From NCBI GenBank assembly GCA_026982555.1, contig JALSGT010000084.1, forward strand, positions 1-61,830: 61,830 nucleotides of DNA, given 5' to 3'. Shown in pieces: positions 34,776-46,820 of this stretch (position 1 is its first letter; each line of letters starts with the position of its first letter). The notes beneath the pieces were generated by a model, which was not told where the DNA came from, did not search any database, and was given only the letters and a program-made list of their open reading frames with translations. The DNA comes from Chromatiales bacterium. Its GTDB lineage: Bacteria; Pseudomonadota; Gammaproteobacteria; SZUA-152. A program made the position numbers and the translations under genes.

Positions 34776-35258
34776 ATGGCAATATATCTTGAATATGATG
34801 GAATACCGGGAAATGTAACGGCTGAAGGTTTTGAGAAGTGCATCAAAATCAGCTCAGTGAGTTTTGGTACGTCACGCCCGATTACCATGGAAGCGGGTAA
34901 AATGGCTAACCGTGAAGTCGGCAAGCCCACTGTTTCTGAAGTAAATCTCACGAAAATAGCCGATAATTCTGTTGCTGCACTGTTTAAAGAGTCTGTTTCC
35001 GGTTCGTCAGGCAAAAATGCAGTTCTTAAATTTACTCGCACTGGCAGTGACGGTGTTGAAGAATTTATGGAATATTCGCTGGAAAATTGCCTGGTCAGCA
35101 GCTACCACATTGCTGCCAACGGCGATGCCGAGCCAGAAGAAACGATCACGTTGAGTTTTTCCAAGTGTGAAATCAACTACAAAGATCACGATGCAACCAA
35201 TAAGACGGGTAGTCCGCAACGCGCAGGTTACGATCTGACAAAAGCTGTACCGTTATAA
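34776..35258 (+). CDS. hcp: T6SS tube protein Hcp
   Basis: MAIYLEYDGIPG, NLTK..D, L.N..VSSY, E.ITLSF..CEINY. Confidence 0.9.
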   Translation: MAIYLEYDGIPGNVTAEGFEKCIKISSVSFGTSRPITMEAGKMANREVGKPTVSEVNLTKIADNSVAALFKESVSGSSGKNAVLKFTRTGSDGVEEFMEYSLENCLVSSYHIAANGDAEPEETITLSFSKCEINYKDHDATNKTGSPQRAGYDLTKAVPL

Positions 35259-35396: not shown

Positions 35397-37328
35397 ATGA
35401 GTGATTTTACTCAGGACAGCCGTCTTATCGCTGTTGACACACCTTTGGGGAAGGATGTGCTTTTGCTGGCCTCATTTGATGGCGCTGAATTTGTCTCTTC
35501 TCCATTTGAGTTTCATCTGACCGCGCTGTCTCTCAATCTTGAAATCAAACCGGAAGACCTCGTCGGTAAACCGATTACGGTTAAAATTCAAAATGAACAT
35601 GGCCGGGTTTTTCATGGTCTTGTCAGCAAGTTTGCGTTTGGCGAAATAACCTCCAGTAGTTTCCGCAAGTATCATCTGGTGATGGTGCCATGGCTTCAGT
35701 TCCTTTCTCATACCGAAAATCGTCGTATTTTTCAAAACAAAAACTCAAAGGATATCATCAGCCAGGTATTTGCTGATCTGGGGTTTGGTGATTTTGATTT
35801 CAGGGCAAGTGGTGGTGTGCCAAGGGAGTATTGCGTTCAATATGGTGAAAGCGATCTGGATTTTGTTTCCCGGCTACTGGAAGAGGAAGGCTATGCCTAT
35901 TACTTCACCCATGGGGAAGACAAGCACACGCTGATCATTGTTGACAAAGCGAATGCTTATGATGAATGTACTGAAACGAATTTAACTTGCTCAAAGGGCT
36001 CGACACCGGACTCTGAAATACAGAGCTGGGAACATCATTATGAGTTCAGGAAAGGTGGCTGGATTGTAAATGACTTTAATTTTAAAGAGCCGAAAAAAAG
36101 CCAGGAAGTAGAAACAAAATCAAAAAGCAAATTTGCCAATAACAGCAAATTCAAACATTATGAATACCCTGATTTATATGATGTCGGCTCGGGGGCTGAT
36201 CTGGTTAAGGTCCGTATGGAAGCAGAAGAAGCGCCGATGGATACCATTACCGGCTCCAGCAATTGCAGTACGTTTTATGCCGGTGGTTTTTTTAAGCTGG
36301 ACAAACACGATGCCAAGAGTGAGCAGGGTAGCTATACTTTGCTGCGAGTCGAACATCATGCCTCTGATTCCAGTTATTACACAGGCGAAAAAGGCGAGAC
36401 AGGTTACAGTAATAAATTTGATTGCATTTCATCGGACGTACATTTTCGGCCAGCCCGGGAGCATCCGCGTCCTGTAATGAAGGGGCCGCAGTCTGCAATA
36501 GTCACAGGCCCGGCAGGCGAAGAAATTTATATTGATGAGTTTGGCCGAATCAAGGCCCAGTTTATCTGGGATCGGGAAGGGAAAAATGACGAGAACAGCT
36601 CCTGTTTTCTGCGTGTCATGCAGGCCTGGGCAGGTAATGGCTGGGGTACTTCATTTATTCCTCGTATTGGCCACGAAGTAATTGTCACGTTTCTTGATGG
36701 TGACCCGGACCGGCCGATTGTGACCGGAACTGTTTATAACGGGGTTAACAAACCACCTTATGGCTCAAAAACACAAAGTGGTATCAAAACGCACTCAACC
36801 AAAAGTGGCACCGCAGCAAACTTTAATGAACTGCGCTTTGAAGATAAAAAGGGCTCGGAACAGGTTTATATCCATGCCGAAAAAAACCTGGATACAATGG
36901 TCGAGAACAACGAAACCTTAACCGTTGATAATGACCGTACAAAAACCATCAAAAATGATGAAAATTCAACAATAGAAAATGACCGTAACAAAACGGTCAA
37001 TAACAACCAGACGGAAACCATAAAAAAGAATAAAACCATTGATGTTGGCAAGGACCACAAAGAAACCATTGGGTCAAATATGACGATTATGGTTGATAAG
37101 GATCTGAAAGAATCCGTTAAGGGTAACTATACAGAGAGCGTCACAAAAGATTATGCATTGCAGGCCAAGACAATTACTTTACAGGCAAATGATAAAATTA
37201 CCATCCGAACAGGTGCTGCCCAGATAGTGATGAAAAGTAATGGCGATATCACCATGAGCGGAAAGACGATCAATATCAAAGGCTCCGGTAATGTGGTGAT
37301 TAATGGCAGTAAGGTGATTACCAATTAG
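35397..37328 (+). CDS. vgrG: T6SS spike protein VgrG
   Basis: REYCVQYGESDLDFVSRLLEEEG, GPQSAIVTGPAGEEIY, IPRIGHEVIVTFLDGDPDRP, NELRFEDKKG; about 8-aa gp5-type C-terminal repeats; no effector extension. Confidence 0.93.
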   Translation: MSDFTQDSRLIAVDTPLGKDVLLLASFDGAEFVSSPFEFHLTALSLNLEIKPEDLVGKPITVKIQNEHGRVFHGLVSKFAFGEITSSSFRKYHLVMVPWLQFLSHTENRRIFQNKNSKDIISQVFADLGFGDFDFRASGGVPREYCVQYGESDLDFVSRLLEEEGYAYYFTHGEDKHTLIIVDKANAYDECTETNLTCSKGSTPDSEIQSWEHHYEFRKGGWIVNDFNFKEPKKSQEVETKSKSKFANNSKFKHYEYPDLYDVGSGADLVKVRMEAEEAPMDTITGSSNCSTFYAGGFFKLDKHDAKSEQGSYTLLRVEHHASDSSYYTGEKGETGYSNKFDCISSDVHFRPAREHPRPVMKGPQSAIVTGPAGEEIYIDEFGRIKAQFIWDREGKNDENSSCFLRVMQAWAGNGWGTSFIPRIGHEVIVTFLDGDPDRPIVTGTVYNGVNKPPYGSKTQSGIKTHSTKSGTAANFNELRFEDKKGSEQVYIHAEKNLDTMVENNETLTVDNDRTKTIKNDENSTIENDRNKTVNNNQTETIKKNKTIDVGKDHKETIGSNMTIMVDKDLKESVKGNYTESVTKDYALQAKTITLQANDKITIRTGAAQIVMKSNGDITMSGKTINIKGSGNVVINGSKVITN

Positions 37329-37346: not shown

Positions 37347-37904
37347 GTGAAATATAACGAGCCTGATATAACTCAAGCGCAAGAAGAAACCCTGTCATTG
37401 CCCTCCGGTATAGCGCCTGGTGAGATTGTCATCGGCACTCTGGTGGACACTGACAAACAGGGGCAGCCGCTTGTGGACTTTTCGGAAAACCCGGCCAATA
37501 AGCCATTAAAAGCAATAGCAACGCTTGTCCTTACCCAAAGGCATGTCGGCAGGCAGGTTGCCCTCCTGTTTACAAACGGAAATCTGCAAAACCCGGTGAT
37601 CATGGGTATGATCCACAGCCCTTTGCAAGACATGCTGGAAAATTTTGGGCAATTTCAGACCAAAGATGAACCTGATAATGAGACCCGGAACGATGCAGGG
37701 CAAGAGGGTGATCTGAAAGTAGATGATGTCCTGGTTGATGGTCAGAAAATTATTTTTGAAGCCAAGGATAAAATCGTCCTGAAATGTGGTAAATCAAGCA
37801 TTATCCTGACCAAAGATGGAAAAGTGTCAATACGCGGAAAAAACGTATTGAGCCGCGCAACGGGTACCCATCAAATCAAGGGCAGTGCGTTTCAGGTGAA
37901 CTGA
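37347..37904 (+). CDS. DUF6484-like protein (gp5 OB-fold plus short needle-like tail)
   Basis: VALLF.NG...PVIMG followed by VLKCGKSSIILTKDGKVSIRG; position between vgrG and DUF2169. Confidence 0.65.
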   Translation: MKYNEPDITQAQEETLSLPSGIAPGEIVIGTLVDTDKQGQPLVDFSENPANKPLKAIATLVLTQRHVGRQVALLFTNGNLQNPVIMGMIHSPLQDMLENFGQFQTKDEPDNETRNDAGQEGDLKVDDVLVDGQKIIFEAKDKIVLKCGKSSIILTKDGKVSIRGKNVLSRATGTHQIKGSAFQVN

Positions 37905-37924: not shown

Positions 37925-38917
37925 ATGTTACAACTTCGCAACAGCAGTCCCTTTGCAGCCGGCCTTGCCCTGTTTCCGAATGAAGAGGGTATTGATACAT
38001 TCTACTTGCTGGTTCGGGCCACGTTCAATATTGGCGAACAATGGACTCTGGCCGATGAACAACTTCCCCCCGCAGAGGGTGATGAGTATTGGGGAGACCC
38101 TGAGAAATCCAGTATTAAACAAGTATCGGATTATCATACCGGCAAACCGGGCAGCGATATTATCATGCTCGGTAATGCTTTTGCCCCCGATGGAAAAGAA
38201 GTTCAGCAACTGGACGTCAGCCTGACGGTTGGCCAGATACATAAAACTGTCCGTGTCTTTGGTGATCGTTATTGGCAGAATGGACGTATATCCGCCCCGA
38301 AGCCATTTCATACCATGGCGATGATTTATGAAAATGCTTACGGTGGAACACATCTTGTCGATGACGTCGCCATTGCGACGGAAGAACGAAACCCTGTCGG
38401 CTGTGGTTTTGCAGGGCAGCGCACGGCAGAAGAAATGAATGGTCTGCCTCTGCCTAATCTGGAAGACCCCAGTGACCTGATTACCCGTATTTCCCAACAA
38501 CCTGTTCCCGCCTGTTTTGGCGCAAGCGCTCCGCACTGGCAGCCACGCGCCGCTTATGCCGGTACATATGATGCTGCATGGCAAACAGGCCGGGCACCTT
38601 TCCTGCCGGAAGACTTTGACAAGCGTTTTTGTAATATGGCGCACCCTGATCTGGTGTATGCCGGGTTTCTCAAAGGAGGGGAACCTGTCACCATTACTCA
38701 CATGCATCCACACGGCACCATTAACTTTGAAATACCCCACGTCCGGCTGCATGCAGATGTGACCGTTGCGGGAACTTCTGTGCAGCCCCCGTTTAACCTG
38801 GAAACAGTAATCATAGAGCCGAACCGGTTAAAACTTGGCATGGTCTGGCGTGCCGCAATGCTGTGTGACAAACAGGCACAGCTGATCAGTGACGTGGCAC
38901 TCAAATTGTCAAAATGA
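37925..38917 (+). CDS. DUF2169 T6SS adaptor/chaperone
   Basis: KPGSDIIMLG, KTVRVFGDR, YENAYGG, NPVGCG, RAAYAGTYD..W, P.LPEDFD.RF.N.A, LETVIIEP. Confidence 0.88.
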   Translation: MLQLRNSSPFAAGLALFPNEEGIDTFYLLVRATFNIGEQWTLADEQLPPAEGDEYWGDPEKSSIKQVSDYHTGKPGSDIIMLGNAFAPDGKEVQQLDVSLTVGQIHKTVRVFGDRYWQNGRISAPKPFHTMAMIYENAYGGTHLVDDVAIATEERNPVGCGFAGQRTAEEMNGLPLPNLEDPSDLITRISQQPVPACFGASAPHWQPRAAYAGTYDAAWQTGRAPFLPEDFDKRFCNMAHPDLVYAGFLKGGEPVTITHMHPHGTINFEIPHVRLHADVTVAGTSVQPPFNLETVIIEPNRLKLGMVWRAAMLCDKQAQLISDVALKLSK

Positions 38918-40076
38918 GCCATCTGATGATCACAGACATATTCAATCAGACTCAATCATGACTGCAAATGGACAAAGCAAAAAAATGCCGGATTCAGATA
39001 CATTTCAGCCTCCGACGCGACCTGTTATTGTGCATGATGTCACCATGCTGTCACCACTGGGGGATGATGTTATGCAGGTGGCGGCGGCGGTACGTGCAAA
39101 CATTAGCCGGTTTAACGAAAGTGTTTTTTACAATCAAAAATTATTGCCCCTCAAAATGGCACTGGTGCCCGATGGGATTTTACCCCCTCTTGATGATGAA
39201 CTGCTTAAAAAAGGGGGTATTTCCCCCTGGCAAAAACGTTTATTAAGGCTGGCAACCCGCCCACTGACAACACTGTTTAAGATGCGGGGCAGAGGCGCAT
39301 TACCCCTTTTCCTCGCCTGTCCGGAAACACTGCCTGGGCGTCGTTATCGCATCACCGACCGTTTTCTTTCATTGCTGAAAATACAGACAAAGCAAGCGAT
39401 TGATATGGAGAACAGTTATCTGTTTCCTTTTGGGCGTGCGGCAGGATTGTGTGCGTTGGAAGCTGCCATGCTCCATATTGAAAAACACCCGGGCAGTCAG
39501 GCGATAGTAGGCGGTATTGATAGTTATATTGATCCCTACCTGCTGAGCACTTTGGCACAAAAGAACCGCATCGCGGGACATGGCGTTATGGATGGCTTTA
39601 TCCCGGGAGAGGGAGCCGCTTTTTTATTAATAGGTGCGGCGTCTCAGTTATCTGCTGAAGCCTCAATAGACACTGGATCTCGCTTTATATTATACCCGCC
39701 CGGTATTGCTTCAGAACCGGGGCACCGCTACTCCCCTGAACCGTATCGCGGGGAAGGGCTGGCTAACGCCGTCACCGATGCACTGGATGTTAACCTAAAT
39801 TCAAAAGTTGATACGGTGATGATCAGTTTCAACGGCGAAAACTTTTTTGCGAAAGAGTGGGGTGTGGCGGCAATACGCAATGCCGCTGCATTTACCGCAG
39901 AACCGGCATTTTTACACCCCGCAGATTGTTTTGGTGATGTCGGTGCCGCGTTTGGACCCATGGCCATAGGGGTCAGTATCATGGGAATGCATAAAAAATA
40001 TTTAACATCACCGGCATTGATCTGCTGTTCTTCCGAAATGGAACAGCGTTCAGCCGTTTGTTTAACCGTTATTTAA
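38889..40076 (+). CDS. Thiolase/ketoacyl-synthase-like T6SS accessory protein (PRK06147-like)
   Basis: GGIDSY, FIPGEGAAFLL, NGE.F.AKEW, HPADCFGDVGAA; typical partner of DUF2169. Confidence 0.8.
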   Translation: MTWHSNCQNEPSDDHRHIQSDSIMTANGQSKKMPDSDTFQPPTRPVIVHDVTMLSPLGDDVMQVAAAVRANISRFNESVFYNQKLLPLKMALVPDGILPPLDDELLKKGGISPWQKRLLRLATRPLTTLFKMRGRGALPLFLACPETLPGRRYRITDRFLSLLKIQTKQAIDMENSYLFPFGRAAGLCALEAAMLHIEKHPGSQAIVGGIDSYIDPYLLSTLAQKNRIAGHGVMDGFIPGEGAAFLLIGAASQLSAEASIDTGSRFILYPPGIASEPGHRYSPEPYRGEGLANAVTDALDVNLNSKVDTVMISFNGENFFAKEWGVAAIRNAAAFTAEPAFLHPADCFGDVGAAFGPMAIGVSIMGMHKKYLTSPALICCSSEMEQRSAVCLTVI

Positions 40077-40091
40077 GGAGGTATCCGCGTT

Positions 40092-40472
40092 ATGGCTTGC
40101 AGCGTATTTGTTAATGGAAGAGGGATTGCCCATAAAGGCAGTGGCGGGAAATCAATTGTTTTTCCAGATGTCTGTAAAACACCGGTTGGCCCTTCCGTTG
40201 TGCCGATTCCTTACCCTAATCTGGGCCAGTCGGCGGATACCTCAAAAGGGCCAAAATCCATCACCATCAATGGCCAGATGCCCATGGTCAAAGGGGCAAA
40301 ATACGCAATGAGCAGTGGCGATGAAGCGGGCGTTGCCAAAGGTATTATCAGTGGCAAAATCAAAGGTGAATGTGAATTTCTCATGTACTCCTTTGACGTG
40401 AAATTTGAAGGAAAAAACGTCTGTCGCATGGGTGACCCGTTATGGCACAACAAAAAGAATATTTTAGGGTAG
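40092..40472 (+). CDS. Stand-alone PAAR-like DUF4150 (PIPY) spike-tip protein
   Basis: FPDVCKTP...PIPYPN, SSGDEAG, SFDVKFEGKNV.R.GD; stops after 126 aa with no toxin fusion. Confidence 0.88.
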   Translation: MACSVFVNGRGIAHKGSGGKSIVFPDVCKTPVGPSVVPIPYPNLGQSADTSKGPKSITINGQMPMVKGAKYAMSSGDEAGVAKGIISGKIKGECEFLMYSFDVKFEGKNVCRMGDPLWHNKKNILG

Positions 40473-40514
40473 CGAATACCGTTACGGTGTGGATAACAAC
40501 CACGGAGAAAAACA

Positions 40515-41360
40515 ATGACAGAGATGATTGAACCCGTATCGGTGGCCACCATTGATCACGAAGACCATGAAGAAGAAACCTGTGCATTTTGTACCGCACC
40601 GACCAAACCCACCGATGAAAAAAACACGCTTCAGGATGATTTTGATGAAGACAAACATGAAATTCCGGGCCTGAATGATGATGGTATGGCACTTAAAAAC
40701 AGCGCCGGGCAGCTCGGCAAAAACCTCGCCAAAAAAGGAGCGGCGCAGATCACTGCCGAGGTGAAACTGGCCGGACTTGCCAAAATACTGCCGGTGACCA
40801 GTGCTGCCCATCATGTGATTCCCGGCAATGCAGCGTTAAAGAGAAGTGAAATCATGCAATACCTGCATACCGACGGCATGGCCACGGGCAATATCGGTTA
40901 TAACGTCAACAACGATGAAAATGGTATCTGGCTGGTGGGTAATTATGCCTTGCGTGGCAAAAAAGGGTTGCCCGCCTGGGGGCCTGAAGGTGCTCATTTC
41001 ACTGTCGGTAAACCGGGTGTGCCGGGCACTAAAAAAGACCCTTATGAATATGCCAAAGCAGCGATAGAAGCAACCGGTTACCAGTTCCACGATGGCCATG
41101 ATAAATACAGTATATTTGTGAAAAAAACATTGGATTTGATCGCCAAAAAAATGGAGCTGACGCAGGATGTCTGGTGTATCGAGGCAGCCAATAAGCCGAA
41201 TAAACCTGAAGAGCAGCAACTGTTCATGTTGGTCAACCGGCTCAACACGGTCTCACGACGCATGAAAACCCTGTTGCAAAACCCGGGTAAAAACTGGAAA
41301 AAAAATGTTTTTACCTCCCGTTTCAGTGAAAAATATATCGAAGATGAAATCTATAAATAA
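40515..41360 (+). CDS. AHH-family (HNH/EndoVII fold) nuclease effector, copy 1
   Basis: SAAHHVIPG, GYNVNNDENGIWL, QFHDGHDKY; own GGAGA RBS. Confidence 0.8.
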   Translation: MTEMIEPVSVATIDHEDHEEETCAFCTAPTKPTDEKNTLQDDFDEDKHEIPGLNDDGMALKNSAGQLGKNLAKKGAAQITAEVKLAGLAKILPVTSAAHHVIPGNAALKRSEIMQYLHTDGMATGNIGYNVNNDENGIWLVGNYALRGKKGLPAWGPEGAHFTVGKPGVPGTKKDPYEYAKAAIEATGYQFHDGHDKYSIFVKKTLDLIAKKMELTQDVWCIEAANKPNKPEEQQLFMLVNRLNTVSRRMKTLLQNPGKNWKKNVFTSRFSEKYIEDEIYK

Positions 41361-41376
41361 ATAGAGAGAGGCAAGT

Positions 41377-41979
41377 ATGTTTTATATGCTGGATGATACC
41401 ACCGCAAAAAAGCGCTGGCTGGATATTGATGACTATCTGGATCATTATGGTTTTCGCTCACAATATGGAACAACGTTCAGGTGGTTTAATGGGTCGATAT
41501 TCGTTGACGCCCCCCCTGAACCCTTTGAAATAAAGTTGCGACCGCTTGAGGTTGACCATCCTGATCACGGCCCACTGATTCCATCATACTATGATGACAC
41601 AATTGTTTTGATGCGCGATGATCTGATCGAGGCGATGGTGACCTTTGGTGTGGATAACCTGGACACCTATGCGGTGAACCTCACCGACCCGGATGATGGC
41701 ACGGTTTACACTAACTACAAGGCGGTCAATATCATCGGCGTAGTGGCTGCCGCCGACATGAAAAAATCCACCGCAACGGTGCATAACAACATCCCGCTGG
41801 TGGATGTCTCCTTCGACAAGCTCGTGATCAATGAAGAAAAGGTGCAGGATTTACTGCTCTTTCGTCTGGCAGAAAACCTGATGACCATCCTGATGAACGA
41901 GCACCTGCGCAACTATCTGCTGGAAAAAGGGTTTGATGATATTAAGTATTACCCGCTGGATGAAGTGGCGACACCATAA
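41377..41979 (+). CDS. Imm11/DUF1629-like immunity protein, copy 1
   Basis: Immediately downstream of the toxin; V.LMRDDL.EAM..FGVDN, Y..VNIIG, LFRLAEN. Confidence 0.72.
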   Translation: MFYMLDDTTAKKRWLDIDDYLDHYGFRSQYGTTFRWFNGSIFVDAPPEPFEIKLRPLEVDHPDHGPLIPSYYDDTIVLMRDDLIEAMVTFGVDNLDTYAVNLTDPDDGTVYTNYKAVNIIGVVAAADMKKSTATVHNNIPLVDVSFDKLVINEEKVQDLLLFRLAENLMTILMNEHLRNYLLEKGFDDIKYYPLDEVATP

Positions 41980-42013
41980 CGGTGATGATGATGGTAATCA
42001 CGGAGAACAGACA

Positions 42014-42859
42014 ATGACAGAGATGATTGAACCCGTATCGGTGGCCACCATTGATCACGAAGACCATGAAGAAGAAACCTGTGCATTTTGTACCGCACCG
42101 ACCAAACCAACCGATGAAAAAAACACGCTTCAGGATGATTTTGATGAAGATAAAAATGAAATCCCGGGCCTGAATGATGATGGCATGGCACTTAAAAACA
42201 GCGCCGGGCAGCTCGGCAAAAACCTCGCCGAAAAAGGAGCGGCGCAGATCACTGCCGAGGTGAAACTGGCCGGACTTGCCAAAATACTGCCGGTGACCAG
42301 TGCTGCCCATCATGTGATTCCCGGCAATGCAGCGTTAAAGAGAAGTAAAATCATGAAATACCTGCATACCGACGGCATGGCCACGGGCAATATCGGTTAT
42401 AACGTCAACAACGATGAAAATGGTATCTGGCTGGTGGGTAATTATGCTTTGCGTGGCAAAAAAGGGCTGCCCGCCTGGGGGCCTGAAGGTGCTCATTTTA
42501 CCGTCGGCAAACCCGAAGTGCCCGGCACGGGCAAAGACCCTTATGAATATGCCAAAGCGGCGATAGAATCAACCGGTTGCCAGTTCCACGATGGTCACGG
42601 GAAGTACAGTACATTTGTGGAAAAAACACTGGATTTGATTGCCAAAAAAATGGGGCTGACGCAGGATGTCTGGTGTATCGAGGCAGCCAATAAACCGGCG
42701 AAACCTGAAGAGCAGCAACTGTTCATGCTGGTCAACCGGCTCAACACAGTCTCTCGACGCATGAAAACTATGTTGCAAAACCCGGGTAAAAACTGGAAAA
42801 AGAATGTTTTTACCTCCCGTTTCAGTGAAAAATATATCGAAGATGAAATCTATAAATAA
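42014..42859 (+). CDS. AHH nuclease effector, copy 2
   Basis: Same 281-aa length as copy 1, intact AHH motifs, about 15 substitutions; 1499-bp offset from copy 1. Confidence 0.8.
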   Translation: MTEMIEPVSVATIDHEDHEEETCAFCTAPTKPTDEKNTLQDDFDEDKNEIPGLNDDGMALKNSAGQLGKNLAEKGAAQITAEVKLAGLAKILPVTSAAHHVIPGNAALKRSKIMKYLHTDGMATGNIGYNVNNDENGIWLVGNYALRGKKGLPAWGPEGAHFTVGKPEVPGTGKDPYEYAKAAIESTGCQFHDGHGKYSTFVEKTLDLIAKKMGLTQDVWCIEAANKPAKPEEQQLFMLVNRLNTVSRRMKTMLQNPGKNWKKNVFTSRFSEKYIEDEIYK

Positions 42860-42873
42860 ATAGAGAGGCAAGT

Positions 42874-43476
42874 ATGTTTTATATGTTAGATGATACCAGC
42901 GCAAAAAAACGCTGGCTGGATATCGATGATTATATAGATCGTTATGACTTTCGCTCACCGTATGACGATAAATTCACCTGGTTTAATGGGTCGATATTCG
43001 TTGACGCCCCCCCTGAACCCTTTGAAATAAAACTGCTGCCCTATGTTGCCGAAGACCCTGATCACGGCCCATTGATTCCATCATATTATGATCACAAAAT
43101 TGTCTTGATGCGCGATGACCTGGTCGAGGCGATGGAGGCTTTTGGTGTGGATAACCTGGACACCTATGCGGTGAACCTCACCGACCCGGATGATGGCACG
43201 GTTTACACTAACTACAAGGCGGTCAATATCATCGGCGTAGTGGCTGCCGCCGACATGAAAAAATCCACCGCAACAGTGCATAACAACATCCCGCTGGTGG
43301 ATGTCTCCTTCGACAAGCTGGTGATCAATGAAGAAAAGGTGCAGGATTTGCTGCTCTTTCGTCTGGCAGAAAACCTGATGACCATCCTGATGAACGAGCA
43401 CCTGCGCAACTATCTGCTGGAAAAAGGGTTTGATGATATTAAGTATTACCCGCTGGATGAAGTGGCGACACCATGA
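42874..43476 (+). CDS. Imm11/DUF1629-like immunity protein, copy 2
   Basis: 200 aa; identical to copy 1 after residue ~90, divergent before it. Confidence 0.72.
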   Translation: MFYMLDDTSAKKRWLDIDDYIDRYDFRSPYDDKFTWFNGSIFVDAPPEPFEIKLLPYVAEDPDHGPLIPSYYDHKIVLMRDDLVEAMEAFGVDNLDTYAVNLTDPDDGTVYTNYKAVNIIGVVAAADMKKSTATVHNNIPLVDVSFDKLVINEEKVQDLLLFRLAENLMTILMNEHLRNYLLEKGFDDIKYYPLDEVATP

Positions 43477-43582
43477 CTTTTAATCCCGGCAGGTTTACGT
43501 TCCCGCTGCTTGCCGTGTTGTTGGGGGAGTGGATTTAGCCGTAAAGATCGAAAAGGAAATCTATAAATAACGAGAGGCAAGT

Positions 43583-44149
43583 ATGTTTTATATGCTGGAT
43601 GATACCACCGCAAAAAAACGCTGGCTGGATATTAGTAATTATAATGACTGTTATGGTTTTCGCTCACAATATGGAACCAGGTTCAGGTGGTTTAATGGGT
43701 CGATATTCGTTGATGCCCCCCCTGAACCCTTTGAAATAAAACTGCTGCCCTATGTTGCCGAAGACCCTGATCACGGCCCATTGATTCCATCATATTATGA
43801 TCACAAAATTGTCTTGATGCGCGATGACCTGATCGAGGCGATGGTGACCTTTGGTGTGGATAACCTGGACACCTATGCGGTGAACCTTACCGACCCGGAT
43901 GATGGCACGGTTTACACTAACTACAAGGCGGTCAATATCATCGGCGTAGTGGCTGCCGCCGACATGAAAAAATCCACCGCAACAGTGCATAACAACATCC
44001 CGCTGGTGGATGTCTCCTTCGACAAGCTGGTGATCAATGAAGAGAAGGTGCAGGATTTGCTGCTGTTTCGTCTGGCGGAAAACCTGATGACCATCCTGAT
44101 GAATGAGCACCTGCGAAACTACCTGCTGGATGAAGTGGCGACGCCGTAG
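43583..44149 (+). CDS. Orphan Imm11-like immunity protein, copy 3 (mosaic, 12-aa deletion)
   Basis: 188 aa; lacks EKGFDDIKYYPL; preceded only by a 24-nt toxin 3'-end scar (43547-43570). Confidence 0.7.
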   Translation: MFYMLDDTTAKKRWLDISNYNDCYGFRSQYGTRFRWFNGSIFVDAPPEPFEIKLLPYVAEDPDHGPLIPSYYDHKIVLMRDDLIEAMVTFGVDNLDTYAVNLTDPDDGTVYTNYKAVNIIGVVAAADMKKSTATVHNNIPLVDVSFDKLVINEEKVQDLLLFRLAENLMTILMNEHLRNYLLDEVATP

Positions 44150-44185
44150 TTTTTGATGATGCCTGGGTTTGGTGTTTTGAATAAA

Positions 44186-45421
44186 ATGAATACACAACAT
44201 TTTTTTAAAGATATTCATGAGCAATATGTTGATGATGCCGCTTTTCTGTGGATATTACGCTCAGTTGCGACAGAAAAACCTCACTATAAGGCTAGTGATA
44301 TACAGGGGCTGGAACAACGCATCGAGGCACCTCTCGATGGGCTTATGACCTCGTTGGAGTCTGGCTGGGCGGCTTGTGAGTCAGCCCTGGAGATGCAAGA
44401 GCCGGGTGAGGTGTTTACCGCGATGACCATCGCCATGCGCAGCCATGAAGCCCGTAAAATCCAGCAGGCTGTTGAAGCTGGATTGGCCAATGATCTCGCC
44501 ACGCCCGGTTTGATCTCTGCCATGGGCTGGCTGCCCGCTGAAATCGCAACCCCCTGGATGGAACGGTTTCTCAATGGCAAAGAGATGAATCACAAGTATT
44601 TAGGCTTGGCGACCTGTAGTGTCCGCCGCCAGGACCCGGGCGAAATACTGACTAATATTTTACGACGAGACGACTGTCTGCAACATGAAAAGCTCTATGC
44701 ACGCGCTTTGCGTTTGATTGGAGAATTACGCCGTCAGGATTGTATGCCAGCAATCAATACCTCCCTGCATGACGACAATGAAAATATCCGCTTCTGGGCA
44801 AACTGGTCTGCGGTGTTATTAGGCCAGCGAGCCAGTGTTAAAAATCTCGAATCCCTTGTTTTTAAAGCCGGCCCCCATCAAGACCAGGCTATCCAGCTGG
44901 CTTTCCGGGTTTTGCCCGTCGAGCAGGCCCGGGAATGGATCTCCAGATTATCAGAAGATGGAAGCCAGATCCGGGCGGTAATCAAGGCCACGGGCGTACT
45001 CGGCGATCCTCACGCTATTAACTGGCTGATCAGCAAAATGCAAAACCCAATATTAGCAAAACTCGCTGGTGAGTCATTTTCATTAATCACGGGCATCGAT
45101 TTAGAAAGACACCATTTGCAAATTGATGTGCCTGACAATACGTCTCCCGTCGAAAATGTTGACGATGACAATATCGAGCTGGATCAGGATGAAAATTTGC
45201 CATTCCCGGATGTCACGAAAGTGGAAGCCATTTGGCGTAATCATGGACAGAACTTTATTATTGGCCGTCGCTATTTTATGGGCCGCCCTGTTACATCAGA
45301 AATTCTTAAAGAAAAATTGGCCGACGGTACACAACGTCAACGTCATGCAGCAGCAATGGAGCTGGCATTGAGTGAAAATGATGTGCAGCTTCCCAACACG
45401 CGCGCACGGATATTGGCCTGA
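44186..45421 (+). CDS. TIGR02270-family HEAT-repeat T6SS accessory protein
   Basis: DDAAFLW..R...P.Y...L..RIEA.LDGL, GDPHAINWLI, AGESFSLITG, LPFPD. Confidence 0.82.
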   Translation: MNTQHFFKDIHEQYVDDAAFLWILRSVATEKPHYKASDIQGLEQRIEAPLDGLMTSLESGWAACESALEMQEPGEVFTAMTIAMRSHEARKIQQAVEAGLANDLATPGLISAMGWLPAEIATPWMERFLNGKEMNHKYLGLATCSVRRQDPGEILTNILRRDDCLQHEKLYARALRLIGELRRQDCMPAINTSLHDDNENIRFWANWSAVLLGQRASVKNLESLVFKAGPHQDQAIQLAFRVLPVEQAREWISRLSEDGSQIRAVIKATGVLGDPHAINWLISKMQNPILAKLAGESFSLITGIDLERHHLQIDVPDNTSPVENVDDDNIELDQDENLPFPDVTKVEAIWRNHGQNFIIGRRYFMGRPVTSEILKEKLADGTQRQRHAAAMELALSENDVQLPNTRARILA

Positions 45422-45947: not shown

Positions 45948-46232
45948 ATTGGTTCTCTTTCTGAGACCTGCATTGTAACGGAAAGTTTCGCGCTTTTGAC
46001 AGGAATATTTTGATTGTGTCGAAGGAAAGGGGGGTGCCGAGCTTTCATGATGCGTTGCTTGCCTTTGGTAAAGCCGGTTTCGGGCTTTGGCCCGAATTGA
46101 ACCAACGATGCCCCACCCACAGACAAAGGATCTGGCTGAACGTTATGAATGCACCGCTATCACCGCAAGCTTGAACCGAGGTTAAAATATCATGGAATGA
46201 GAAAGTCCGGTGCGGACAAGGAGGGTTCAATA

Positions 46233-46820
46233 GTGAAAAAGAATAGGGGGTTTAGTCCTGGCCTACAAGGCGAGGCTAAAGCCTCACTTCCGAGACATCG
46301 TCATCTTCCTCATCTGGATATGGAAAATCATCACCAGTTTATCACGTTTCGCACCCGGGATAGCGTTGATGGCTACTTGAAAAAACGGGCACAACAAAAC
46401 CTGCCCAATGGTAAACGGCAGCTCGCGATAGACAAATATCTGGATCAATCAAAAAATGGTGCTTACCTTAATGATGATGTTTTGGTTTTATTCAGTGAGT
46501 TTATTAAAACGAAAGACACGGTGTTATATGAACTCATTGCTTTTTGTATCATGCCAAACCATGTTCATCTGTTGATAAAACCATTGGATAAGCTGGCTAA
46601 GGTGATGCAAAAACTAAAAGGGGGCAGTGCAAAATTAATTAATGAAATGCTGGGGAGAAAGGGGAGTTTTTGGGCGGTAGATTATTACGACAAATTAATC
46701 AGAGACGAAAAACATTTTTCTGTTGTGTATGAGTACATCAAAAATAACCCGGCTGTTTTGGGCGAGGCTAAAGCCTCACCTCCAAGGTTTTACGGTATTT
46801 ACGAGGAACCGGGACTTTAG
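46233..46820 (+). mobile_element. REP-associated tyrosine transposase (RAYT, HUH Y1)
   Basis: RHLPH...QFITFRT, CIMPNHVHLL (HUH), FW...YYD..IRD, YI.NNP. Start uncertain (46149 ATG, 46233 GTG behind AAGGAGGG, or 46320). Confidence 0.85.

Follow-up and report, generated by a model that had tools for sequence, protein, structure and literature searches.

A stand-alone PIPY tip protein and two separately encoded AHH nucleases in a T6SS auxiliary island of a Chromatiales bacterium

Known AHH and PIPY systems and the gene content of the island

In Myxococcus xanthus, AHH/Imm11 pairs that adjoin single-domain PAAR genes have been characterised genetically as T6SS toxins, and DNase activity has been demonstrated for these members of the AHH family (PMC12077131). 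Deletion of PAAR1-4, or loss of the N-terminal 40-70 residues of the toxins, phenocopies the deletion of the toxins, and each toxin needs its own adjoining PAAR gene (PMC12077131). Such loci are located far from the single T6SS cluster and are still functional (PMC12077131), and additional imm11 genes are present at some of them (PMC12077181).

The second group of related systems comprises the VgrG1b cluster PA0095-PA0101 of Pseudomonas aeruginosa, which encodes the GHH2 toxin Tse7 (Tvp class II; Pissaridou 2018, as cited in PMC11883445 and PMC13373197), and the PefE cluster of Proteus mirabilis. In both Tse7 and PefE, the PIPY domain is fused to the toxin. DUF4150 also exists as single-domain proteins (Sachar 2025, PMC11883445). 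One such stand-alone DUF4150-type PAAR protein is Paar1 of Serratia marcescens, which occurs with TvpAB, TvpB and TvpC and depends on DUF2169-family chaperones and on a pre-complex with a VgrG mimic (Tvp class III; PMC13373197). A separate effector of Paar1 was not identified and VgrG1 itself is suspected to take this role (PMC13373197).

The DNA analysed here, in the following called the window, is a stretch of 61,830 nucleotides from a Chromatiales bacterium (contig JALSGT010000084.1). Pfam and NCBIfam profiles revealed a module with the order Hcp, VgrG, DUF6484, DUF2169, PRK06147-like, PIPY, two AHH/Imm11 pairs, an orphan Imm11 and TIGR02270 (Table 1). DUF6484 proteins have been named TvpC (PMC13373197) and DUF2169 proteins are chaperones for PIPY (PMC11883445). 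All six marker genes of the Tvp class II / DUF2169 synteny type A set are found in the expected order, with the PRK06147 match of 166 bits lying under the NCBIfam equivalog cut-off of 342. The start codon of this PRK06147-like gene is uncertain, because the homology starts only around residue 45, and PRK06147 is conserved immediately 5' of PIPY in most related loci. Its gene content places the module among the hcp-vgrG auxiliary islands of Tvp class II / DUF2169 synteny type A. Domain profiles of Pfam and NCBIfam detected neither a toxin nor an adaptor as a C-terminal extension of VgrG.

Table 1 Features of the auxiliary island, with positions in the window
Feature	Coordinates	Strand	Evidence
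Hcp (TssD) tube protein, 160 aa	34776..35258	+	Pfam T6SS_HCP PF05638, E 6e-32
VgrG (TssI) spike, 643 aa	35397..37328	+	TIGR03361 596 bits (cut-off 186); Phage_GPD, Gp5_trimer_C
DUF6484 protein, TvpC-type VgrG mimic of class II Tvp systems, 185 aa	37347..37904	+	Pfam DUF6484, E 5e-20
DUF2169 chaperone (TvpA), 330 aa	37925..38917	+	Pfam DUF2169, E 5.6e-95
PRK06147-like/thiolase-like protein (TvpD)	38889..40076	+	NCBIfam PRK06147, E 1.1e-48
Stand-alone PIPY/DUF4150 spike-tip protein, 126 aa	40092..40472	+	PF13665, E 3.4e-43
AHH nuclease toxin 1, 281 aa	40515..41360	+	PF14412; family alignments; AlphaFold2 model
Imm11 immunity protein 1, 200 aa	41377..41979	+	Pfam Imm11 PF07791, 27 bits (cut-off 22.1)
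AHH nuclease toxin 2, 281 aa	42014..42859	+	Family alignments; tandem repeat
Imm11 immunity protein 2, 200 aa	42874..43476	+	Comparison with Imm11-1
3'-end remnant of third AHH gene (...IEKEIYK-stop)	43547..43570	+	Direct comparison with 3' end of AHH toxin 1 gene
Orphan Imm11 immunity protein 3, 188 aa	43583..44149	+	Pfam Imm11, E 3.9e-5
TIGR02270/HEAT-repeat accessory protein, ~400-422 aa	44153..45421	+	TIGR02270 344 bits (cut-off 207)

The island resembles the M. xanthus loci in possessing free AHH proteins with an N-terminal extension, Imm11 directly 3' of the toxin, a separate 126-aa PIPY-type gene directly 5', and DUF6484 and TIGR02270 thereafter. One M. xanthus locus has the order PIPY (126 aa), AHH, Imm11, DUF6484, TIGR02270, which matches the window. 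However, two intact toxin cassettes are present per tip in the window, unlike in the one M. xanthus locus examined, a locus other than MXAN_0050, where VgrG, DUF2169 and PRK06147 are absent within approximately 7 kb. With the Tse7 and PefE clusters, the window shares the accessory set and its order, namely VgrG, DUF6484, DUF2169, PRK06147, PIPY, an HNH-superfamily nuclease, immunity and a TIGR02270/ARM-like protein. In contrast to Tse7 and PefE, the PIPY protein of the window stops after residue 126, and the AHH proteins possess a leader of their own. The stand-alone DUF4150-type PAAR protein, the DUF2169-family chaperones and, presumably, the pre-complex with a VgrG mimic are common to the window and the Paar1 system of S. 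marcescens, but the accessory proteins of the latter are those of class III (DUF3540 and pentapeptide-repeat proteins), whereas those of the window belong to class II and are accompanied by clear cargo toxins.

Separation of the PIPY tip from the AHH nucleases

The PIPY gene is preceded by the ribosome-binding site AAGGAGG and ends with a TAG stop at 40470-40472. The protein covers positions 3-107 of the 108 positions of the PF13665 (Tox-PAAR-like) model with 146.6 bits (cut-off 31), and the PIPY domain is therefore complete. Within the motif V-P-I-P-Y-P-N at residues 37-43, P38 and P40 are invariant in the family alignment and I39 and Y41 are conserved in at least 90% of the sequences. In total, 31 columns of this alignment are invariant, and relatives from different phyla are 62-87% identical to the copy in the window and likewise end in the conserved ...HNKKNI(M/L)G-stop. 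No second PIPY gene was found in the assembly. In 401 genomes of the same class, at least 30 of 49 PIPY copies lie in open frames of no more than 200 aa. A search restricted to proteins 0.55-1.75 times as long as the query yielded at least 6,786 PIPY-like proteins; of the 120 listed, nearly all have 124-127 aa.

The comparison of 77 AHH-bearing loci from Gammaproteobacteria, Myxococcota, Acidobacteriota, Gemmatimonadota, Planctomycetota, Verrucomicrobiota, Fibrobacterota and other groups did not reveal a single PIPY-AHH fusion. [quoted passage not shown] A separate PIPY gene is present at 63 of the 77 loci, immediately 5' of AHH at 49 and elsewhere in the cluster at 14; at the remaining 14 loci, there is none within the fetched DNA. 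In 60 of the 63 cases, PIPY ends at the residue equivalent to residue 126 of the protein in the window. The intergenic gaps are mostly 3-30 nt long, and Imm11 directly follows AHH at 72 of 76 loci. According to these comparisons, the split layout is the normal and widespread form for the AHH toxin family. Members of this family are also carried by culturable Teredinibacter and Hahella strains.

These results also bear on whether the stop at 40470-40472 might be an assembly error, as considered in the preliminary description, or else stem from faulty sequencing or from a recent mutation that pseudogenised a fused, Tse7-like PIPY-AHH effector. PIPY and AHH toxin 1 do share one reading frame and fused PIPY toxins are known (Tse7, PefE, PDB 8qjc). 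However, two in-frame stops part the two genes, TAG being followed by TAA six codons on, AHH toxin 1 has its own GGAGA and ATG, and AHH toxin 2 comes after an immunity gene and not after PIPY. The frame relations between PIPY and AHH are distributed 14:22:11 over 47 adjacent pairs and thus lack an in-frame bias. Together with the common end of PIPY and the lack of fusions among the relatives, the comparative data effectively refute an error or a fresh mutation, and we give this explanation next to no credence. Fusion by recoding or readthrough was considered as well and is ruled out by the two stops and the lack of in-frame bias among the relatives.

The description of the locus given earlier, with a PIPY protein stopping at 126 aa and two AHH nucleases each having its own GGAGA and ATG, is confirmed by open reading frames and profiles: the two GGAGA sites precede the ATGs by 6 nt and 7 nt, AHH PF14412 (HNH/EndoVII superfamily; 33.5 bits, cut-off 22.3) is the only Pfam domain in the nucleases, and PAAR, Rhs or VgrG domains were detected in neither of them with the Pfam and NCBIfam profiles. 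The survey of fused and split homologues likewise agrees with the proposal that the nucleases are separate genes, and their products are most likely non-covalent cargo of the PIPY-tipped spike. The split was also regarded as a departure from fused DUF4150 toxins; it is real, but it is not unusual. Neither is it new, since the arrangement of AHH/Imm11 pairs with single-domain PAAR genes was already characterised in M. xanthus (PMC12077131), including the genetic demonstration that the AHH family depends on a separate PAAR-type tip. The preliminary description had itself named such a prior characterisation as a refutation of its reading. The split layout itself changes nothing: for this T6SS nuclease family, which is widespread, it is the standard arrangement.

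The N-terminal leader and the proposed loading of the nucleases

AHH toxin 1 consists of an N-terminal leader (approximately residues 1-59) and a folded core from about residue 61. The leader is characterised by the motifs MxExGExVxV ... CxF, often as H-x4-CxFC, followed by an acidic tract. In an alignment of 57 sequences, C23 is invariant and E6, L67 and G68 are conserved in at least 90%. No Pfam model matched the leader, and a search of 1.84 billion representatives with a leader profile yielded 167 matches, in which nearly all leaders begin at residue 1. Of 102 long matches, 86 are Pfam AHH proteins and not one belongs to any other toxin family. Neither the leader profile nor the full AHH profile had a match in a sample around a Corallococcus genome, which probably does not represent a taxonomic family and was therefore disregarded. 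In the AlphaFold2 model, residues 1-59 have pLDDT values below 50 and the core from residue 61 reaches 82-88, so that the leader is predicted to be disordered on its own.

Conserved N-terminal markers with a presumed role in loading are known from T6SS cargo effectors as MIX, FIX and RIX, and these occur on many toxin families. The leader described here is similar in being a conserved segment ahead of the toxin domain, but it was found on AHH nucleases only, is predicted to be disordered and lacks a Pfam match. A shared leader of this kind, disordered by prediction, starting at residue 1 and found on AHH toxins only, appears to be new. The idea that the module can load interchangeable effectors thus finds support only among AHH variants.

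The island encodes a complete stand-alone PIPY tip and separately translated AHH nucleases, and we consider it probable that the latter are cargo effectors with a leader-based attachment; the island would represent the cargo version of an effector in place of the fused one. By analogy to described Tvp systems, DUF2169 (TvpA) together with PRK06147 (TvpD) would keep PIPY soluble, and PIPY would first assemble on the DUF6484 protein (TvpC), which mimics VgrG, before it is passed to VgrG itself. The two AHH nucleases would be delivered by the T6SS as cargo effectors of the PIPY-tipped spike, each attached non-covalently via its leader of about 60 residues, and the Imm11 protein encoded directly 3' of each AHH gene would neutralise this toxin in the producer. 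The likely target of the leader would be the PIPY-VgrG tip or accessory proteins on the tip. With nearly identical leaders, the two toxins would either share the single tip or compete for it.

[quoted passage not shown] The loading route, which had been called uncharacterised, is so with regard to the physical docking site, but the requirement for PAAR and the toxin N-terminus was already known from M. xanthus genetics. In a more specific reading, the leader may serve as a loading signal that has so far escaped description and is particular to stand-alone PIPY tips; it would fold only on the PIPY/VgrG/Tvp complex and mark out a class of PIPY-dependent cargo nucleases that spans phyla. We put this forward tentatively, with slightly less than even confidence.

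It is also conceivable, albeit unlikely, that the nucleases are cargo but that the leader docks away from PIPY, either on PRK06147/TvpD or a TIGR02270 adaptor, on the VgrG shaft or in the Hcp lumen. In a second count of the direct 5' neighbours of AHH at 76 loci, PRK06147 was found 10 times, VgrG five times and TIGR02270 twice; PIPY, however, was found 50 times. In Mantel mirror-tree tests, the leader gave rho values of 0.17-0.24 with the module proteins, whereas those of the toxin domain were -0.09 to 0.12, which is weak evidence that the leader co-evolves with the module more closely than the toxin domain does. The value for PIPY (0.17) does not exceed those for PRK06147 (0.20) and DUF2169 (0.24), and the correlations are too weak to pick out a partner of the leader. 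An AHH protein of 31 kDa is large for typical cargo of the Hcp lumen. PRK06147 has been proposed as an effector adaptor, and AHH proteins make up 23.6% of the PRK06147-associated toxins (Liu 2020, PMC7714669). Against docking away from PIPY also speak the requirement of each M. xanthus toxin for its own adjacent PAAR (PMC12077131) and the M. xanthus locus without PRK06147, DUF2169 and VgrG nearby. An AlphaFold2 model of a PIPY-AHH fusion (two stops read as Gln; alignment of PIPY-only rows and of 13 rows paired naturally in frame) showed no docking, but its confidence, also in the PIPY part, was too low (mean pLDDT 48.6, pTM 0.46, leader around 30) for it to be informative in this respect.

The recruitment of free-standing effectors by small PIPY tips is not known to be covered by any structure or binding study. 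A conserved leader that is disordered alone, the constant separation from PIPY and the highly conserved tip offer a clean system for work on cargo loading. If the leader is indeed a loading signal, the family would be a tractable model of non-covalent effector recruitment by a PAAR-like tip, as well as of two toxins sharing one tip.

Toxin duplication and integrity of the island

Within the core of AHH toxin 1, the motifs AAHH and QFHDGH are located at residues 97-100 and 190-195, respectively. Residues H99, H100, N136, H192, D193 and H195 are shared by all 68 aligned AHH sequences, and both copies in the window have them intact. No meaningful match emerged when the AHH model was compared by fold with the PDB or when PDB sequences were searched with a profile. 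Based on family membership, the AHH proteins are predicted DNA-cutting toxins and the Imm11 proteins their predicted antidotes; the latter assignment is supported by the position directly 3' of the toxin and by scores of 27.0 and 23.5 bits (PF07791, cut-off 22.1).

The two AHH toxins are 95% identical, and none of the 14 substitutions affects an invariant column. Their dN/dS ratio of 0.18 led us to reject positive selection between the copies; both are under purifying selection and look functional.

This is of importance for the question of whether the island is a non-functional remnant in this organism, left as an orphan vgrG/effector module that no T6SS can fire. The sheath gene TssC has no match in the assembly and is present in only five of 13 genomes of the same genus, being absent from the other eight. 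However, the assembly is a MAG of merely 73% completeness, all 13 module genes are intact, Hcp and VgrG are encoded within the island, and selection on both toxin copies is purifying. Furthermore, distance from the T6SS cluster does not prevent the M. xanthus loci from working (PMC12077131). We therefore regard a remnant as quite improbable.

The toxin/immunity cassettes form a tandem repeat with a spacing of 1497-1499 bp, and the second pair and the orphan Imm11 are the result of a recent, lineage-specific tandem duplication. The ATG of AHH toxin 2 is located at 42014, and the list of open reading frames also gives a TTG-extended frame from 41933. All 20 substitutions between the first two Imm11 proteins fall within residues 9-89.

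The spike tip and its free-standing nucleases

The T6SS island genes of the window form a single block, in which all genes are co-directional.

Features of the T6SS island in the window
Feature	Position	Strand	Remarks
Hcp	34776-35258	+	
VgrG	35397-37328	+	643 aa; TIGR03361, 596 bits
DUF6484 protein	37347-37904	+	
DUF2169	37925-38917	+	E 5.6e-95
PRK06147-like thiolase-fold protein	38889-40076	+	E 1.1e-48, under equivalog cut-off
Tox-PAAR-like/DUF4150 (PIPY)	40092-40472	+	126 aa
AHH nuclease 1 (AHH#1)	40515-41360	+	
Leader region of AHH#1	40515-40700	+	MxExGExVxV, HxxxxCxFC, acidic tract
Imm11-1	41377-41979	+	
AHH nuclease 2 (AHH#2)	42014-42859	+	
Imm11-2	42874-43476	+	
Remnant, 3' end of third toxin	43547-43570	+	24 nt
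Orphan Imm11-3	43583-44149	+	
TIGR02270/HEAT-repeat protein	44153-45421	+	344 bits

The DUF4150 domain of the tip protein is complete, as it aligns to positions 3-107 of the 108 in the model (E 3.4e-43), and its name-giving PIPY motif reads VPIPYPN. PF14412 is the sole domain match in both AHH nucleases (residues 96-215), the domain search found no PAAR, Rhs or VgrG domain in them, and GGAGA lies 6-7 nt 5' of the ATG in both genes. Toxin and immunity gene are repeated in tandem as one unit, at a spacing of 1497-1499 bp. Open frames, domain matches and GGAGA sites therefore confirm the split tip and the two nucleases of the preliminary description at their positions; one start needs adjusting, that of AHH#2, which is the ATG at 42014. 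Just 3' of the island, an ORF (46149-46820) resembles a REP-associated tyrosine transposase, as judged by eye from its translation.

Comparison with other genomes indicates that the stop of the window PIPY is the normal end of the protein. Genomes, one for each prokaryotic species, were pattern-scanned with an alignment of AHH homologues, which yielded 78 loci from Gammaproteobacteria, Betaproteobacteria, Alphaproteobacteria, Myxococcota, Acidobacteriota, Gemmatimonadota, Planctomycetota, Verrucomicrobiota, Fibrobacterota and others. All stop-to-stop frames were translated and searched with the nine module proteins of the window, and AHH was matched in 77 loci. This survey of fused versus split homologues, which had been proposed as a check, revealed no fused layout, with PIPY and AHH sharing a frame in none of the 77. 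A separate PIPY frame lies immediately 5' of AHH in 49 loci and elsewhere within the same cluster in 14; no PIPY was found in the fetched DNA of the other 14 (short contigs or orphan cassettes). Of the 63 PIPY-bearing loci, 60 have a frame whose end aligns exactly with window residue 126. These PIPY proteins are 62-87% identical to the window copy across phyla; 31 columns of their alignment are invariant, and the C-terminus is conserved as HNKKNI(M/L)G followed by the stop. The window PIPY and AHH#1 are in the same reading frame with two stops between them (TAG, then TAA six codons on), and adjacent PIPY-AHH pairs show frame relations of 14:22:11 (n=47). Neither the two stops nor this spread of frames points to readthrough or to a fusion that broke recently.

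The residues H14, C28, C111 and H119 are invariant or at least 90% conserved in the PIPY subfamily of the window and might possibly form a metal site; according to the literature, PIPY domains are without the PAAR zinc site. Among solved structures, only PDB 8qjc_A resembles the window PIPY (40092-40469) in sequence (E 1.6e-14); its matching part, residues 19-123, is the N-terminus of a 1530-aa T6SS-associated Rhs toxin and thus an example of the fused form.

Distribution and precedents of the split layout

A stand-alone PIPY is not unusual. In 401 same-class genomes PF13665 occurs at 49 places, 30 of them in open frames of at most 200 aa; because a protein can be shorter than its stop-to-stop frame, 39% is an upper limit for the fused share. 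A PIPY from Archangium as query retrieved at least 6,786 related proteins from candidates that are 0.55-1.75 times as long as the query; among the 120 matches listed, which include Myxococcus xanthus and M. virescens, nearly all have 124-127 aa. According to Zhang 2021 (PMC8651086), about 60% of the toxins associated with PAAR are encoded by separate genes, and no PAAR-related toxin is more common than AHH. Of the toxins beside PRK06147 genes, 54.5% are GHH2, 23.6% are AHH, and 54% are fused (Liu 2020, PMC7714669). In the present survey, moreover, the AHH portion of such modules is essentially always the unfused one.

The accessory set of the window matches "synteny type A" (Sachar 2025) and "Tvp class II" (Monlezun 2026, PMC13373197). 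According to this scheme, DUF2169 (TvpA) covers a hydrophobic patch of PIPY, PRK06147 (TvpD) is a predicted co-chaperone, and DUF6484 (TvpC), a short mimic of VgrG, acts as the template of a pre-complex and is later replaced by VgrG (Sachar 2025; Monlezun 2026, PMC13373197). In the reference examples, PA0095-PA0101 (Tse7) of P. aeruginosa and PefE of P. mirabilis, the toxin is fused to PIPY; the window combines the same machinery with an unfused toxin.

The AHH-Imm11 cassette of the window lies within the module, with PIPY on one side and TIGR02270 on the other; in many relatives the cassette is flanked by PIPY and a DUF6484-TIGR02270 pair. A second count found PIPY directly 5' of AHH in 50 of 76 loci, PRK06147 in 10 and VgrG in 5, and Imm11 directly 3' in 72; intergenic gaps are typically 3-30 nt. 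This conserved order and the short gaps argue that the nuclease is an integral, probably co-transcribed part of the module. In the AHH loci L007, L010, L013, L016 and L055-L070, a short DUF6484-like gene is located 3' of Imm11 and just 5' of TIGR02270, not directly after VgrG, which places the toxin cassette amid accessory genes. Two Corallococcus cassettes (L003:5169-6589 and L004:1358-2778) are 54% identical to those of the window, leader included; no PIPY, VgrG or Tvp genes were detected in the fetched DNA (14.0 and 7.7 kb, respectively), and they look like orphans far from any tip gene.

The dependence of AHH toxins on a separate PAAR-type tip is already characterised at the genetic level. 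M. xanthus has four homologous toxin-immunity pairs, each tied to a single-domain PAAR gene (Wang 2025, PMC12077131), and deletion of each PAAR gene phenocopies that of its own toxin (Wang 2025; commentary PMC12077181). Loss of the N-terminal 40-70 residues alone gives the toxin-deletion phenotype, the truncated toxins are still active nucleases, and the authors describe the N-terminal regions as "highly varied" (Wang 2025, PMC12077131). Our comparison, which covered the M. xanthus loci L084-L086 (CP017170, CP017169, CP017174; 7390-13350), identified a tip of the PIPY type, the 126-aa Tox-PAAR-like protein P0408. An AHH toxin gene lies 8 nt 3' of it, and genes for Imm11, DUF6484 and TIGR02270 (272 bits) come next. 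Inserted opposite-strand genes interrupt the toxin in these strains, with an extra IS66-family element in L086; immunity gene, DUF6484 and TIGR02270 are still intact.

The preliminary description had interpreted the nucleases as non-covalent cargo loaded by an uncharacterised route. Its observation holds and its interpretation is supported in part; an earlier characterisation of split arrangements with this toxin type, which it had itself named as a refutation, exists for M. xanthus (PMC12077131). PIPY-tipped spikes with free-standing AHH/Imm11 cargo are a widespread class with published genetics, of which the window module is an ordinary and well-preserved example.

The two toxin cassettes and their host

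AHH#1 and AHH#2 differ at 14 of 281 residues, none of them in invariant columns, and the dN/dS of 0.18 argues that both copies are maintained. Their synonymous divergence (40515-43476) is 0.067 in the leader versus 0.21 in the toxin part, and that of the Imm11 copies 0.045 in the C-terminal versus 0.45 in the N-terminal half, a mosaic that suggests gene conversion between the cassettes. In L001, the nearest relative (AHH 79% identical by tblastn, PIPY 87%), the cassette is single, and just 4 of 76 loci carry a pair; the duplication is therefore recent and local. The leader regions show 2 differences in 95 residues, so that both toxins should use the same tip.

The host MAG (2.43 Mb, 162 contigs, 73% complete) contains one PIPY gene. 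TssC was not detected in this incomplete assembly and is present in 5 of 13 same-genus genomes; a functional T6SS in the host is plausible.

The AHH leader and its probable docking site

The remaining interest lies in a conserved AHH-specific leader, which appears to be what is new here, and in the mechanism of docking. Three elements are common to all AHH toxins of the surveyed loci, the most distant included: an N-terminal M-x-[EQ]-[LI]-G-E-x-[VI]-x-[VI]; around residue 20, a C-x-F whose Cys is invariant and which often reads H-x4-C-x-F-C, as in the window; and, C-terminal to an acidic tract that varies in length, N-[DN]-x-[GS]-x-L-G-x-N-L. [quoted passage not shown] When 1.84 billion representative proteins were searched with a profile built from 57 leaders, only 167 matched (E ≤1e-3). 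Nearly all of the 150 matches listed begin at residue 1 of proteins of at most about 375 aa. Of the 102 long matches, 86 contain Pfam AHH, none contains another toxin family, and at least 90% have the AHH histidines. The leader is confined to one toxin family, AHH, and is no general marker like MIX, FIX and RIX, which head T6SS cargo effectors of many toxin families. In the AlphaFold2 model of the toxin alone, residues 1-59 have a pLDDT <50 and element 3 (helix 64-73) is part of the confident nuclease core (pLDDT 82-88); the true leader would therefore comprise about 60 residues and is predicted to be disordered on its own.

Leader distances correlate with those of PIPY, PRK06147 and DUF2169 (rho 0.17-0.24, p ≤0.01), correlations that have no power to tell these candidate partners apart, and toxin-domain distances are uncorrelated with those of the module proteins (rho -0.09 to 0.12). 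Because only the leader distances correlate, the leader, but not the shuffled toxin domain, seems to co-evolve with the delivery module. An AlphaFold2 model of a PIPY-AHH readthrough fusion was too poor in quality for a docking readout. Gene order favours PIPY as the partner, being the most frequent 5' neighbour of AHH, a place also taken by PRK06147 and VgrG in fewer loci, and docking at a site other than the PIPY-capped tip is rather improbable. Our favoured candidate dock for the leader is the PIPY-capped tip, possibly with the help of TvpD or TIGR02270.
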